IMG/VR virus record: IMGVR_UViG_3300045988_031260
DNA: 42,825 nucleotides
Direction: 5' to 3' (one strand)
Source: a virus
The notes beneath the pieces were generated by a model. It had not been told where the DNA came from. It saw nothing but the letters and a program-made list of their open reading frames with translations, and did no database searches. Shown here in pieces: positions 137 through 42,825 of the stretch; within the stretch, counting starts at the first letter, position 1, and every line of letters begins with the position of its first letter. The position numbers and the translations under genes are program-made.

Positions 137-1231
137 TTACTTTTTATTTGTTAGTAACGTGTTAGTAACAGCATCCACAAGTGTCTGCGCGTCGATGTGC
201 GTATATATGTTTGCGGTGGTGGAATAATCGGCGTGTCCGAGTATTTTTTGGAGCATTTCCGGGGGCAATCCCTCTTTTACCGCCCGGGACGCGTATGTGT
301 GGCGTGTGGCGTGCGGGGTCTTTCGCACAATACCCAGCCTGTCAAGGAGCGGGTAAAAATCACGCCTGCGGAAGTTTGCTGGGACTTTTTGCCCATCGTA
401 GCCGGATAACAGTAGCTCCCCCGTTGCTTGCTTCGCAAAGTAGGCAAAGTATTGTTTCCCCTCCGGTCGAATGGGGATAATTCGGTTTCTGCCTGCTTCG
501 GTTTTCTCCCCGCCTACAACATAGTCTCCGTGATAGTCTGCCAGAGGTAGGGAAAACAATTCCCCGATACGCATACCCGTTGCCAGCAGCATCAAGACAA
601 TTTTTGCCGAATCGCTGTTATCGGATTCCAATTTACGGATATCTTCCACCGTGAAGATGTCCTTTTCTTTTTTGACATTTTCCGGCAAGCGCACAAACTT
701 AGCAAAATTTGTCGTGCATATTTCCTCCCGGATGGCCCAGTTCGACATCTGCGTTATGAGCTGCTTGTACTTATTCACGGTGGAATGGCTCTTGCTCATG
801 TGCGGGTCAAGTGCGGCCTGAAAGTCTGCGGTGCGAAGGTCACGGAACTTTCTGCTATGCAATGGAGCAAATACCTTGTAAGCCGTGTTATAGGAATCAA
901 TCCCCTGCTTGCCGATCTCCTTGTAATGCTCCTCTTTCCACGCATCAAAGACTTCAGCAAAGGTCATGTTGTACCTATCCGTTAAACTCTTGCCGTTCAG
1001 CCGCTCCAAAGCGTCCAGAGCGTCTGTCTTGCGCTCATAGTACCCAATGACCACCTTGTTCTTTGCAGCCACCCACGGCTTTTTCCTGCGGCCTGACAGC
1101 TTGTATACCGTACCGGTTCCGTTCGCTCTTTTTAGTGCCTTGCGCTTTTCTGCCAACTGCTTTTTGCCGCACAAATGGCAGTAAATAGCATTTTCGGCAA
1201 GCTCTGCCCCGCATTTCATGCAATTTTCCAT
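137..1231 (-). CDS. int: Tyrosine recombinase / phage integrase with N-terminal zinc ribbon
   Basis: C-terminal HATRHTYAS...LGHADYSTTANIYTH matches the R..HxxR..Y catalytic signature. N-terminal CMKCG..CHLCG. Start placed at ATG 1231 with AAGGGG upstream; the ORF track extends to 1276. Confidence 0.92.
   Translation of the reverse strand: MENCMKCGAELAENAIYCHLCGKKQLAEKRKALKRANGTGTVYKLSGRRKKPWVAAKNKVVIGYYERKTDALDALERLNGKSLTDRYNMTFAEVFDAWKEEHYKEIGKQGIDSYNTAYKVFAPLHSRKFRDLRTADFQAALDPHMSKSHSTVNKYKQLITQMSNWAIREEICTTNFAKFVRLPENVKKEKDIFTVEDIRKLESDNSDSAKIVLMLLATGMRIGELFSLPLADYHGDYVVGGEKTEAGRNRIIPIRPEGKQYFAYFAKQATGELLLSGYDGQKVPANFRRRDFYPLLDRLGIVRKTPHATRHTYASRAVKEGLPPEMLQKILGHADYSTTANIYTHIDAQTLVDAVTNTLLTNKK
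147..169 (+). repeat. Two tandem GTTAGTAAC copies 11 bp apart; candidate integrase arm-type sites (P' arm)
   Basis: GTTAGTAAC at 150-158 and 161-169. TTTGTTAGTAAC at 147-158 recurs at 42650-42661 on the other side of the core. Confidence 0.45.
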
Positions 1232-1235
1232 TGTA

Positions 1236-1790
1236 TCACCCCTTCGATTTGCGAACCATAGAAACGAGAACAGCAAGTGTAATGGCGCTGCTGGCTATCA
1301 GCACCGCAATAAGCACCCATGCAAACACGCTTGCAACCCCACCACGAATCAGGCCCATATTTGCCGTTTTGAAGTCGAGAAACACATACACCGCCAGTAG
1401 AAGCATAACAATTACAAGGGCGGATATGGTAACATATATAACCCGCTGCTGTGATTTGATTCTCTTGTGCTGCAGGTCGATGGTCTGGGCCATGCTTTCC
1501 ACATTGCCCTCCAGATGTGCCGCCTTTAACTCCGCTTCTCTGTTTTGCTGCATTTCTTCAAGCCGCTTTTCTGCAGGAACATCTTCTTCGATCCCGAAAT
1601 ATCTATCCAGCGATACCCCCAGTACAGCACAAATGTCACCGGCGTTGTACACGCTGGGCGATTTGGACGCTGTGGCGAAGAAATTGTTGATGGTGGAAAT
1701 GGAGATTCCGGTTTCGTCAGATAGCTTTTGCGTGGTGATTCCCTTCCTGATTTTTGCGTCCTTGCAAATGTCGCGTAGTGTCGGATTCAT
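1236..1790 (-). CDS. Membrane-anchored XRE-family HTH protein
   Basis: N-terminal HTH (ITTQKLSDETGISISTINNF), central coiled segment and two C-terminal hydrophobic helices. ATG 1790 preceded by GGGGGA. Confidence 0.75.
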   Translation of the reverse strand: MNPTLRDICKDAKIRKGITTQKLSDETGISISTINNFFATASKSPSVYNAGDICAVLGVSLDRYFGIEEDVPAEKRLEEMQQNREAELKAAHLEGNVESMAQTIDLQHKRIKSQQRVIYVTISALVIVMLLLAVYVFLDFKTANMGLIRGGVASVFAWVLIAVLIASSAITLAVLVSMVRKSKG

Positions 1791-2123
1791 GCATAATCCC
1801 CCTATGTGGGCAATAAGTGCCCTGAATTTGCCGTGCAAAAAATGATTAAAACCCCTTTATGGGATTGCACTGCCCGATAAAATCTTGATATGCTCACATT
1901 GCAGACGATAAACCGTTAGGCGATGCGTAGGCAAACCCTCCCTATCCGGTGCGGGGATGGGGAGGGTTAGAACAAAATTTCTATTTTTCTATTTTTGTTG
2001 CATATACCCGGGCAACAAACCGCAATCCGGCGCGTATAAGTGAAAACACTTTACTGGAGGATAGCAAAATGACAGAACCGCAAGCCGCCGCTTACATAGC
2101 GCAGCTAACCTATGATGAGAAAC

Positions 2124-2495
2124 TTACGCTTTTCGAGATGCTAAAATCCCTTGAACAAAATCGTCAACCCGACGCAACTCGTCCGGGGTTAACAGGACAA
2201 GCCGTTTAATCAGACCGGCATCCAAAATGCGCTCATCGATCTTGTCGGTGGGCGCTTTTTTTATGCCCGGATCATCCGTTTCGCCCTTTAGCCACTCCAC
2301 GGATACATTGTAAATGTCGGCAATCTGATGGAGTTTCTTTGTATAGGAAACGCTTGCCCCGTTCTCCCACATAGAAACAATAGAGCCATCATTATATCCT
2401 ATGCTTTTGGCAAACTTTACCTTTGCCCCGTGAGCGTATTTCCCGTTCTTGCCTTTAGGGATAAGGCTTAATATTCTTTCCAGCACAATATCCAT
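2124..2495 (-). CDS. CI-like repressor (XRE/HTH_3 family)
   Basis: HTH FAKSIGYNDGSIVSMWENG. Divergent from the cro-like gene. ATG at 2495; the ORF track uses TTG 2501. Confidence 0.8.
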   Translation of the reverse strand: MDIVLERILSLIPKGKNGKYAHGAKVKFAKSIGYNDGSIVSMWENGASVSYTKKLHQIADIYNVSVEWLKGETDDPGIKKAPTDKIDERILDAGLIKRLVLLTPDELRRVDDFVQGILASRKA

Positions 2496-2537
2496 ATTCA
2501 AAACCTAAAATTTGTCAGATTTGCCGAAAGTTAAATT

Positions 2538-2567
2538 TCTTCAAGTTTACTATTGCAATCTTGAAGA
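2538..2567. promoter_or_regulatory. Candidate operator dyad overlapping weak -35/-10-like hexamers
   Basis: TCTTCAAG (2538-2545) and CTTGAAGA (2560-2567) form an 8-bp inverted repeat with a 14-bp spacer. TTTACT-17-TATGAG and TTGCAA-17-TATCTT overlap it on the + strand. Confidence 0.35.
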
Positions 2568-2743
2568 TTATGAGGTATCTTTATATCAGGCCCACCGGAA
2601 AAGGGTACAAAAACACCAGCCCCCACGAAAGCGGCTTTTAACAATTTCTTTTGGCGAAGGTATTGTACCGCAGTTTTTGTGGAGTGTCAAGTGTGAAACC
2701 TCATGAATATGAGTTTTCGGTGGGCGTTGACTGCGGCGGGGAT

Positions 2744-2776
2744 AGAAAAACCGTCTCGTGCGGTAACACGAGACGG
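2744..2776 (-). terminator. Intrinsic terminator, minus strand only
   Basis: 10-bp stem CCGTCTCGTG/CACGAGACGG (2751-2760/2767-2776) followed on the minus strand by TTTTT (2750-2746). Confidence 0.75.
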
Positions 2777-2861
2777 CGGGGTGCAGGAGTTTCCCCTCCC
2801 CACCTCCGCACCGGGCGGGGAGGGGATTTAACAGCAAGAATCGCTGTCTTTGCACTCCTGC
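2746..2861 (-). ncRNA. Candidate ~115-nt structured small RNA in the immunity region
   Basis: Bounded by the promoter above and the terminator below. A 9-bp helix (2782-2790/2854-2862) closes two hairpins: 2793-2801/2817-2825 and 2831-2835/2843-2847. No RBS-led ORF. Confidence 0.55.
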
Positions 2862-2867
2862 AAGGCG

Positions 2868-2897
2868 ATTATAGCACGAACGCCCCGCCGCAGTCAA
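2868..2897 (-). promoter_or_regulatory. Near-consensus sigma-70-type promoter firing leftward
   Basis: The minus strand reads TTGACT (2897-2892), an 18-nt spacer ending TGc, then TATAAT (2873-2868). This is an extended -10 configuration. Confidence 0.7.
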
Positions 2898-2928
2898 TGA
2901 AAACTCACACATAAGGAGGGAGCGCAAC

Positions 2929-3147
2929 TTGACATTGAGAGAAATGCGGGATAGAGCAAATCTTTCCTGCGTGCAGGTCGGCAAGAAGCTGTTTGTTGAC
3001 CAGTCCTGCGTAAGACATTGGGAATACGGAGACTGGGCGCCGGCACGGAAGTACTACAAGAAAATGGCGAAGCTGTACGGCGTGTCGGAGGAGGAGATCA
3101 AGGCTGCTGCGGAAGCTATCCGGGCAGCGAATAAGGAGGAACGATGA
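2929..3147 (+). CDS. Cro-like XRE-family HTH protein, first gene of the rightward early operon
   Basis: TTG start 8 nt after AAGGAGGG. HTH-like LSCVQVGKKLFVDQSCVRHWEYG. Confidence 0.75.
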   Translation: MTLREMRDRANLSCVQVGKKLFVDQSCVRHWEYGDWAPARKYYKKMAKLYGVSEEEIKAAAEAIRAANKEER

Positions 3148-10154: not shown

Positions 10155-10704
10155 TTTTGACTATGACATCGTGCAGAAAAAGCGTGTTGCAAGAGGGGCG
10201 TTTGCCCATGTGAACCGTAAGCGCGGGAAATGCAGATTGCCCAGTGATTACCTCACTGCAGCACAGAGGAAGGAGATGAACGAACCGGTGAAAACTTACA
10301 ACATTACGCGGCCTATGCCGTTGGAGGAATTCAAGGTGGTTCCGGACGATCTAAAGCGAGAATACCTGCGGAATATGCAGAGCTACGGAGCGGCGGCTAC
10401 ATACCTTGCAGACGAGATGGGCTGTTGCGGCGCAACCATCCGAGAATATGGAGAAAAGCTGGGAGTGCCGTTTGTGCGATGTGGTCGGAACTTTGATTTG
10501 TGGCAAAAGAAATTATCGGAGTGGCACACAGCCGAAGTGCCGGCAGAAGAAACGCCGGATAAGCAGACAGACGAAATTGAACCACCCGCAAGGGGTGCAG
10601 AGCTGCTACACGCACGGCTGACCATTCGGGGAGACCGGGAAAGTGCTTTGCAAAATCTGCGGCTGCTTATGCCGGAGGAATGCGAAATCACGGTTGAGTG
10701 GTGA
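10147..10704 (+). CDS. Hypothetical protein (185 aa)
   Basis: Coding texture and overlapping start. HTH-like TYLADEMGCCGATIREYGEKLG. Confidence 0.65.
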   Translation: MNDFDYDIVQKKRVARGAFAHVNRKRGKCRLPSDYLTAAQRKEMNEPVKTYNITRPMPLEEFKVVPDDLKREYLRNMQSYGAAATYLADEMGCCGATIREYGEKLGVPFVRCGRNFDLWQKKLSEWHTAEVPAEETPDKQTDEIEPPARGAELLHARLTIRGDRESALQNLRLLMPEECEITVEW

Positions 10705-17428: not shown

Positions 17429-17521
17429 GCAGGTGTAGCTCAGTCGGTAGAGCTTTATCGCACGAAGGGATATGCGATTGAATGCCCTTGGTCGCTGGTT
17501 CGAGTCCAGCCGCCTGCGCCA
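17429..17521 (+). tRNA. tRNA-like element with canonical acceptor, D and T arms and encoded CCA, but a non-canonical 40-nt central region (isotype undetermined)
   Basis: Acceptor GCAGGTG/CGCCTGC, D-arm GCTC-AGTCGGTA-GAGC, T-arm GCTGG-TTCGAGT-CCAGC and GCCA end. The region 17454-17493 does not fold as a 5-bp/7-nt anticodon arm. Confidence 0.6.
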
Positions 17522-42726: not shown

Positions 42727-42825
42727 ATCGAATTAATATCACAATATACTGTATTTTGCAAAGCGGCTTACGCCTTTTAAGCAGGGTGTCTGGGGTTCGA
42801 ATCCCCAACGGGGCACCAAAAAAGC
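42727..42825. repeat. Right copy of the 99-bp terminal direct repeat
   Basis: Identical to 1-99. True repeat length cannot be judged because the window ends here. Confidence 0.95.
42772..42818 (+). other. Second copy of the tRNA-Lys(UUU) 3' fragment, inside the terminal repeat
   Basis: Same sequence as 46-92. Confidence 0.8.

Follow-up and report, generated by a model that had tools for sequence, protein, structure and literature searches.

What is encoded at the switch of a common gut phage, between the genes for its two regulators? In the viral record IMGVR_UViG_3300045988_031260, whose whole length of 42,825 nt is here called the window, a 427-nt gap separates a cI-like (repressor-like) gene from a cro-like gene, and a compact unit with signals of its own sits inside this gap. 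The locus raises two questions: whether the unit is a small RNA gene, and what such an RNA would do. Based on the comparison of related loci, the unit is predicted to be a real, separately transcribed non-coding gene that points leftward like the repressor-like gene, and the comparative anatomy supports this prediction well. As to the function, the ~116-nt RNA may well be a lysogen-made brake that holds back the cro-like transcript by interference and antisense pairing; it could equally well turn out to be something else.

The promoter of the RNA gene is located on the minus strand at 2868..2897. The -35 box is TTGACT (2897..2892), followed by an 18-nt spacer ending in TGC (TG at 2876..2875) and by the -10 box TATAAT (2873..2868). 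The intrinsic terminator (2746..2777, minus strand) is a hairpin of 12 pairs at 2777..2750, with a perfect 10-bp core at 2751-2776 and the U-tract at 2750..2746; the minus strand reads UUUUUC after the stem. Both signals, TTGACT-18-(TG)-TATAAT and the 10-bp stem with five U, had been proposed in a preliminary description made from the letters of this DNA, and both are present. The promoter matches the consensus at 11 of 12 positions, in addition to the TG before the -10 box. Sites of 11/12 occur three times across the whole window, against 0.28 expected, and two of the three fall in the cI/cro gap, both on the minus strand (2897 and 2690). The predicted transcript of ~116 nt (2746..2861, minus strand) begins ~7 nt downstream of the -10 box and runs through the last base of the U-tract, as judged from the promoter, the terminator and the fold, and the start predicted from the -10 box (~2861) coincides with the first pair of helix P1. 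The preliminary description had placed the end of the RNA 30 nt from the Shine-Dalgarno (SD) sequence of the cro-like gene. This distance has to be corrected: the predicted 5' end is 51 nt away, and the -35 box is 15 nt away.

The terminator stands ~55 nt ahead of the next leftward promoter. Here, just downstream of the RNA terminator, a second strong leftward promoter-like site (TTGACA-17-TACAAT, 2662..2690, minus strand) is likely the promoter of the cI-like gene. At the equivalent place, the related locus L100 has TTGACA-17-TATTAT.

About 100 related loci were gathered via the cro-like protein, DNA patterns, and exact-protein look-ups. All of them have TGCGGCGGGGATAGAAAAACC as the left flank and CCCCGCCGCAGTCAATGAAA as the right flank. 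Along with the position of the promoter and a terminator on the minus strand, these flanks are the constants of a slot that holds one of four classes of cargo. Class A is the RNA described here (62 loci, 26 distinct sequences, 93-100% identical). Class B consists, on the same strand, of a promoter, an SD sequence and a gene for a basic protein of 43 amino acids (phrog_5079, E 2e-10). Class C, also on the same strand, is the FuFi-1 RNA of Rfam (91.6 bits, with a gathering score of 59.6), and the terminator in the FuFi-1 model is the slot terminator. Class D (7 loci) is a truncated FuFi-1 whose 5' part and -10 box are deleted. In the set of 40 loci collected by protein only, ~20 belong to class A, 11 to class B, 6 to class C, and 3 to class D. 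The orientation of the cassette is fixed, on the strand opposite to cro in 22 of 22 cases. No link was found between the cargo class and either the repressor type or the presence of hp2, a hairpin elsewhere in the switch region. The idea that class A is a coding remnant of the class B gene was rejected; only the promoter, approximately the first 15 transcribed bases, and the terminator are common to both.

The signals of the unit are maintained among its copies. In 25 distinct class A variants (from the 62 loci), no change is seen in the -10 box or the TG, and the -35 box varies solely from TTGACT to TTGGCT, in some variants. The terminator hairpin is preserved through U-A, U-G, and C-G exchanges: the pair 133-148 is U-G, U-A, or C-G, and the pair 131-150 is C-G or U-A. 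The terminator spot of classes B, C, and D is taken by hairpins of at least three other sequences, always with the same U-tract on the 3' side. This turnover is conservation of shape, on the minus strand, without conservation of sequence. Together with the invariant -10 box and TG, and with FuFi-1 lying on the same strand of the slot in sister phages, it upholds the earlier proposal of a self-contained leftward unit. With a sigma-70-type promoter and an intrinsic terminator on one strand, both conserved and spaced within the 50-400 nt asked of such genes, the unit has the composition of an independent small RNA gene. The nucleotide diversity, calculated from 9 distinct sequences only, is 0 in the flanks, 0.011 in the promoter, 0.040 in the RNA body, and 0.067 at the third codon positions of cro. 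The difference between the RNA body and the promoter means that selection may act mainly on the promoter and the flanks.

The unit is non-coding. The only SD-like string in the RNA is GGAGGUG, and no start codon follows it within 4-12 nt. One-base indels at alignment columns 107 and 113 of the RNA body are seen in 9 of the 25 variants, and a conserved open reading frame (ORF) is therefore ruled out on both strands. The absence of an ORF led by a ribosome-binding site, as claimed in the preliminary description, is thus borne out.

The fold is the next line of evidence. The minus strand of 2744-2862 folds with -73.9 kcal/mol, compared with -40.8 +/- 3.6 kcal/mol for shuffled sequences (z -9.3), and none of 200 shuffles is as good. 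The minimum free energy and centroid folds are identical, and they reproduce exactly the three-way junction, plus the terminator, that had been drawn beforehand. The body of the junction (2782..2862, minus strand) is composed of three G+C-rich helices, P1 (2782-2790/2854-2862), P2 (2830-2837/2841-2848), and P3 (2792-2806/2813-2826). The hairpin P2 is present as proposed, with eight pairs instead of the five given originally. The plus strand folds less well (-63.8 kcal/mol, z -6.2), because six G-U pairs turn into C/A mismatches. Among the 25 variants, 96% of the helix cells are paired. The unpaired stretches are very short; P1 is joined to the terminator by a C-rich linker of just 4-5 bases, which is variable.

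Compensatory changes had been named as a check of the three helices. They are found in the terminator and, via hp2, in P3, and there is no signal in P1 and P2. When the whole structure is scored, P1 and P2 included, 203 of 500 shuffles show as much covariation as observed. With an identity of 93-100% among the sequences, the test is low-powered, so that P1 and P2 are neither confirmed nor refuted. Some variants carry uncompensated pair breaks, among them G-to-U (column 59), C/A (83-105), and C/C (86-102). A search for distant homologues with structure-anchored patterns, in viral and metagenome collections, yielded only near-identical copies and chance matches. The covariance model of the body, run over ~1.5 Mb of loci, recovered copies of class A and hp2 regions, and beyond these just three weak matches. 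These three full-length matches (19-22 bits) are L147 2548-2633, L144 3075-3167, and L164 5931-6017, all on the minus strand. They consist of a hairpin pair, GCAGC..GCUGC AAAA AGCCCUCGCCG..CGGCGAGGGCU, found elsewhere in FuFi-1 phages, and are probably unrelated.

The hairpin hp2 (1937..1970, plus strand) is the homologue of P3. The two are 88% identical over 35 nt, have the loop GGUGCGG in common, and hp2 is recognized by the class A model with 29.6 bits. It is present in nearly all relatives, regardless of the cargo. When P3 and hp2 are combined into 14 distinct hairpins, the covariation score is 0.278 versus 0.132 for shuffles, and none of 500 shuffles reaches it. The basal pair is C-G, A-U, G-C, or U-A, and three pairs change on both sides. 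The P3 hairpin appears thus to be supported by covariation, through hp2 only. The G-U pairs of P3 and hp2 function only on the strand named for each copy, which fits the leftward reading of the cassette. Across the loci, the class A body model matches hp2 regions at 25-36 bits, and therefore class A may be partly a duplicate of the hp2 RNA. An extended -10-like site, TTGCAC-18-(TG)A-TATGCT, precedes hp2 at 1866-1895, and a U-rich tail is present on its 3' side. The window segment 1866-1990 (plus strand) with hp2 is a candidate for a second small RNA or leader.

How could the RNA act as a brake? No sigma-70-like site is present on the plus strand in 2700-2929. The stretch from the unit to the cro-like gene thus appears to lack a rightward promoter, and early transcripts running rightward would have to cross the unit head-on. 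From the empty plus strand of 2700-2929 and from the arrangement in L082, where the slot lies between two plus-strand helix-turn-helix (HTH) genes, we infer a rightward promoter upstream of the cassette. The leftward promoter is without an obvious operator, and the RNA would then be made in the lysogen. RNA polymerase sitting at this promoter, and moving away from it, would stand in the way of rightward transcription. In the rightward leader, 51 nt ahead of the cro-like SD sequence, the RNA would also find a perfect complement of 116 nt, and the pairing would mark the leader for double-strand cleavage. The net effect would be that leaky lytic transcription is held below a threshold. In trans, the RNA would act against an incoming relative with the same cargo, whichever repressor type the relative carries.

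Several facts weigh against the brake. The RNA (2746-2861) overlaps neither the cro-like SD sequence (2912-2919) nor the start codon (2929), and the rightward promoter itself was not located. The RNA body is only moderately conserved (0.040 in the 9 sequences), P1 and P2 are without covariation among sequences so similar (203 of 500 shuffles score as high), and some pair breaks at columns 59, 83-105, and 86-102 are uncompensated. The slot can also hold a truncated class D (7 loci) or, in L100, a cargo lacking its terminator. Finally, a simple antisense role would need no such stable fold, and it would leave FuFi-1 in the same slot without explanation.

The last point leads to another possibility, to which we give some weight though clearly less than to the brake: a structured RNA acting in trans as a stand-in for FuFi-1. 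The P3 loop would bind a protein or an RNA, the junction would serve as the scaffold, the product would be of the moron type and made in the lysogen, and the antisense position would be incidental. The cargo swaps with FuFi-1, itself a structured orphan RNA, and with a 43-aa protein, which is typical of accessory cassettes, and which cargo is present does not depend on the repressor type. The fold is highly stable, with pairing from the first nucleotide on. The loop GGUGCGG is invariant in 13 of the 14 distinct hairpins while the stem covaries, and it is this hairpin that is repeated in the hp2 regions picked up by the class A model. Against this, no partner was found. Within the window, the complement of the P3 loop is confined to the two antisense strands and one further site, probably a chance occurrence; the single-stranded parts are very short, and the C-rich linker is variable. 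The two roles could also coexist, and as a second function of the antisense RNA, the loop common to P3 and hp2 may supply a trans-acting partner.

The lower conservation of the body, compared with the promoter and the flanks, can be read in a different way. The cassette might be decaying or neutral, with a frame that persists for recombination and insulation, an idle cargo, and hairpins derived from hp2 duplication and palindromic slippage. The uncompensated substitutions and the resemblance of P3 to hp2 agree with it, and so does the decay seen in the slot, namely the truncated FuFi-1 of class D and the terminator-less L100. From these two cases, it is suggested that the cargo is dispensable for the phage. 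What argues against idleness is that class A is the commonest cargo beside this cro allele (~20 of 40 loci), is carried in many independent gut metagenomes, keeps nearly all its helix positions paired, and has lost the -10 box in no variant. A neutral remnant is accordingly considered improbable.

The class A copy in L100 (9327-9616, minus strand) is an observation of its own. Here the body runs into the TTGACA-17-TATTAT promoter, and the loss of the terminator looks like a deletion between two CCCCGCCG repeats.

A further feature, missed by the preliminary description, is a perfect 15-nt inverted repeat, TTGACTGCGGCGGGG, that brackets the unit. The left copy is at 2727..2741 and is kept in all cargo classes, and the right copy at 2883..2897 includes the -35 box. 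The two copies are 141 nt apart; the window contains no others, and 0.1 are expected. Such a repeat could set a DNA-level element, such as an invertible segment, a miniature transposon, or an operator pair. Yet the cassette has never been seen inverted, all 22 examined having one orientation. It is never found outside the slot, there are no target-site duplications, and the repeat sequence is not itself palindromic. The flank and hairpin patterns are without a match in 185,579 representative genomes. A DNA-level element is thus the most improbable of the explanations, to the point that we hardly credit it.

The same repeat raises the question of whether the plus strand is the one that works. 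In this case the structured rightward leader of the cro-like mRNA would be the functional molecule: the repeat would close the cassette, CCCCUCCCC and ACCUCC would pair with the cro-like SD sequence, and the minus-strand promoter and terminator would be secondary. The plus strand of 2700-2935 indeed has a fold of -110.6 kcal/mol (z -7.1), in which the inverted repeat forms a closing helix of ~16 bp, and the repeat is retained around every cargo class. Every cargo class also places the string CACCUCC in the rightward leader. This string is thus not specific to class A, and in classes B and C the CCUCC is accounted for by the minus-strand SD sequence. The few variants of the repeat among relatives include none that is compensatory, and the G-U pairs favor the minus strand. 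The leader also leaves unexplained the invariant minus-strand promoter, the turnover of the terminator, and the minus-strand FuFi-1. A rightward leader as the functional molecule is unlikely, and less likely than either the antisense or the trans-acting role; the neutral remnant and the DNA element are less likely still.

Is the class A RNA a known family? The preliminary description did not recognize the fold, and the Rfam check agrees with it. Permissive searches (E <= 10, lax filters) of both 2450-3000 and 2735-2900 gave no family match for class A, and the best local matches reach 22 bits versus cut-offs of 37-83. The Rfam 15 scan of the whole window at the gathering thresholds detected only a tRNA at 17429, and ARAGORN predicted no tRNA or transfer-messenger RNA at the RNA unit. 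The DNA of 2500-2930 has no match among deposited phages. The corresponding DNA of class C has a single match, to one unannotated faecal phage.

The comparison with FuFi-1 is informative here. FuFi-1 (RF02986) is a motif from a 2017 survey, and its function is unexplained (Weinberg et al. 2017, PMC5737381). Class A stays below the gathering score of 59.6, with no FuFi-1 match at E <= 10, whereas the class C locus L031 obtains its 91.6 bits by the same search. Class A lacks the 5' hairpin of FuFi-1 and its conserved single-stranded tail GGUAAAcAAAUUUgGg. Many unpaired bases are conserved in FuFi-1, but few in class A. The two are alike in having a closing helix around two hairpins and then an intrinsic terminator, which is a likeness of shape only. 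In the sister phages, the slot, the strand, the promoter position, and the terminator position of FuFi-1 are all as in class A. Judged from sequence and predicted structure, class A is a new RNA family, of the phage switch-region small RNA kind, and not a member of FuFi-1.

FuFi-1 is also seen at comparable places elsewhere. The pattern of its tail matches more than 120 viral contigs, and of 12 representatives taken from unrelated clusters, 10 are confirmed by Rfam to carry FuFi-1 (79-147 bits), nine of the ten being outside the present phage group. In these nine loci, FuFi-1 points in the same direction as the nearby repressor-type gene where one is in range, and one of the repressors has a Peptidase_S24 domain. 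It is located directly before or just after a cro-like gene on the opposite strand, which further opposite-strand genes follow; in several of the nine, the RNA gene lies between plus-strand early genes, after the cro-like gene. FuFi-1 thereby gains a consistent address, beside cI/cro-type regulators and directed against the early lytic operon. A cI/cro context of FuFi-1 was not found in the main text of PMC5737381, where "prophage" appears only with other motifs.

Two further observations concern the surroundings of FuFi-1. In contig L174, a skipping-rope RNA (RF02924, 58.8 bits) is present at 10560-10630 (plus strand), 3.5 kb from the FuFi-1 of the same contig; both motifs originate from the 2017 survey. 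In the class C locus L031, an SD sequence and a 16-codon ORF (LTKLLTLPVPDRGDTA) are found upstream at ~2860-2940 (minus strand), and the FuFi-1 match starts at the end of the ORF. Within this ORF, L039 and L121 have a tandem duplication of 12 nt that keeps the frame.

It can be speculated, with considerable doubt, that the RNA slot heads the early lytic operon in temperate phages of gut Firmicutes, and that FuFi-1, class A, and the small basic protein add to the switch, or to superinfection immunity, a second layer that does not depend on the repressor and whose specificity is set by the cargo type. If this is true, class A is the first non-homologous analogue of FuFi-1, and FuFi-1 gains a testable function. 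Because an RNA, a different RNA, and a small protein interchange at one place, the function of all three can be tested by cargo swaps.

Among known phage RNAs, the OOP RNA of lambda is similar in several respects. OOP, which is short and reads leftward from a promoter of its own to a terminator of its own, lies within and antisense to the rightward early operon and overlaps the 3' end of cII, downstream of cro. The present RNA is likewise short and leftward, with its own promoter and terminator, and opposite in orientation to the early operon; it differs in lying upstream of the cro-like gene, in the leader, where it overlaps no coding sequence. The sar RNA of P22 is a small antisense RNA whose promoter faces a strong phage promoter, with mutual transcriptional interference, and it spans the ant ribosome-binding site within immI. 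The present RNA, in contrast, stops 51 nt short of the cro-like SD sequence. The overlap with a ribosome-binding site or coding sequence of the target, which characterizes RNAs of the OOP and sar type, is not seen for 2746-2861.

For the proposed action in trans, a model is STnc6030 of the Salmonella prophage BTP1, an antisense RNA, expressed by the prophage from a promoter of its own, that keeps phages with the matching sequence from superinfecting (PMC7067206, where OOP is cited as well). STnc6030 differs in being 786 nt long and in targeting structural genes, to which it is antisense, rather than the switch region (PMC7067206). The class A unit also resembles morons (the concept as in PMC7067206): it has its own promoter and terminator, is located between the genes of an opposite-strand unit, and is variable among close relatives. 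In layout and variability it can be counted among them, with the difference that the cargo here is an RNA and that the slot itself is conserved, not an occasional insertion. Small RNAs of phage switch regions are known mostly from a few enterobacterial phages, and this gut phage group adds a candidate.

The window corresponds to a complete circular phage genome, because bases 1-99 are repeated at 42727-42825. This terminal 99-nt repeat carries the 3' half of a tRNA and is a probable attachment site. An integrase gene (137-1276, minus strand) and a gene for an HTH protein with a membrane tail (1236-1838, minus strand) are followed by the cI-like HTH gene (2124..2501, minus strand). The cI-like gene encodes 125 amino acids and matches PHROG families of transcriptional repressors and regulators (E 1.6e-8), and its Pfam HTH_3 match is weak. 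The cro-like HTH gene (2929..3147, plus strand; SD at 2912-2919) encodes 72 amino acids and contains Pfam HTH_31 (E 2.9e-9). The cro-like protein is present in 1,177 blocks of the metagenome collection, and every related contig was recovered from a human-gut sample. For the large terminase, no cultured relative exceeds 37% identity, and the host search with the flank and hairpin patterns in the 185,579 representative genomes mentioned above gave no match. The carriers are a group of uncultured temperate phages, very common in the human gut. The hairpin being absent from all those genomes, and hence from any array of clustered regularly interspaced short palindromic repeats (CRISPR) there, a role as a CRISPR-repeat mimic was rejected.

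The DNA next to the cassette contains other repeats. A 145-nt block (2586-2730), which contains the TTGACA-17-TACAAT site, is near identical across different repressors and cargoes; its identity is 94-100% in nearly all relatives that keep it, with any repressor type. A long-range inverted repeat of 12 bp (2590-2601 with 2714-2725) closes the block, whose fold has a z of -3.9. Within it, a 24-nt imperfect palindrome, GAAACCTCATGAATATGAGTTTTC (2696-2719), is present as the exact reverse complement in L088, in L090, and, by a left-flank variant, in L013. This reversal looks like a hairpin flip via template switching. An 11-nt inverted repeat, TCTTCAAGTTT / AATCTTGAAGA (2538-2567), adjoins the repressor-like gene and is likely an operator; phages with other repressors have other repeats there.

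On the other side of the repressor-like gene, a 46-codon ORF on the plus strand (2069-2209) converges on it and overlaps its 3' end by 86 nt. The intrinsic terminator of this ORF (2229-2255) falls within the repressor-like coding sequence. Upstream of the ORF is an operator-like palindrome, TTGTTGC-N10-GCAACAA (1995-2018), with conserved arms and a variable center. Far from the switch region, a 93-nt tRNA-Val(CAC)-like gene, predicted by ARAGORN and matched by the Rfam tRNA model with 45.3 bits, is found amid phage genes at 17429-17521 (plus strand).

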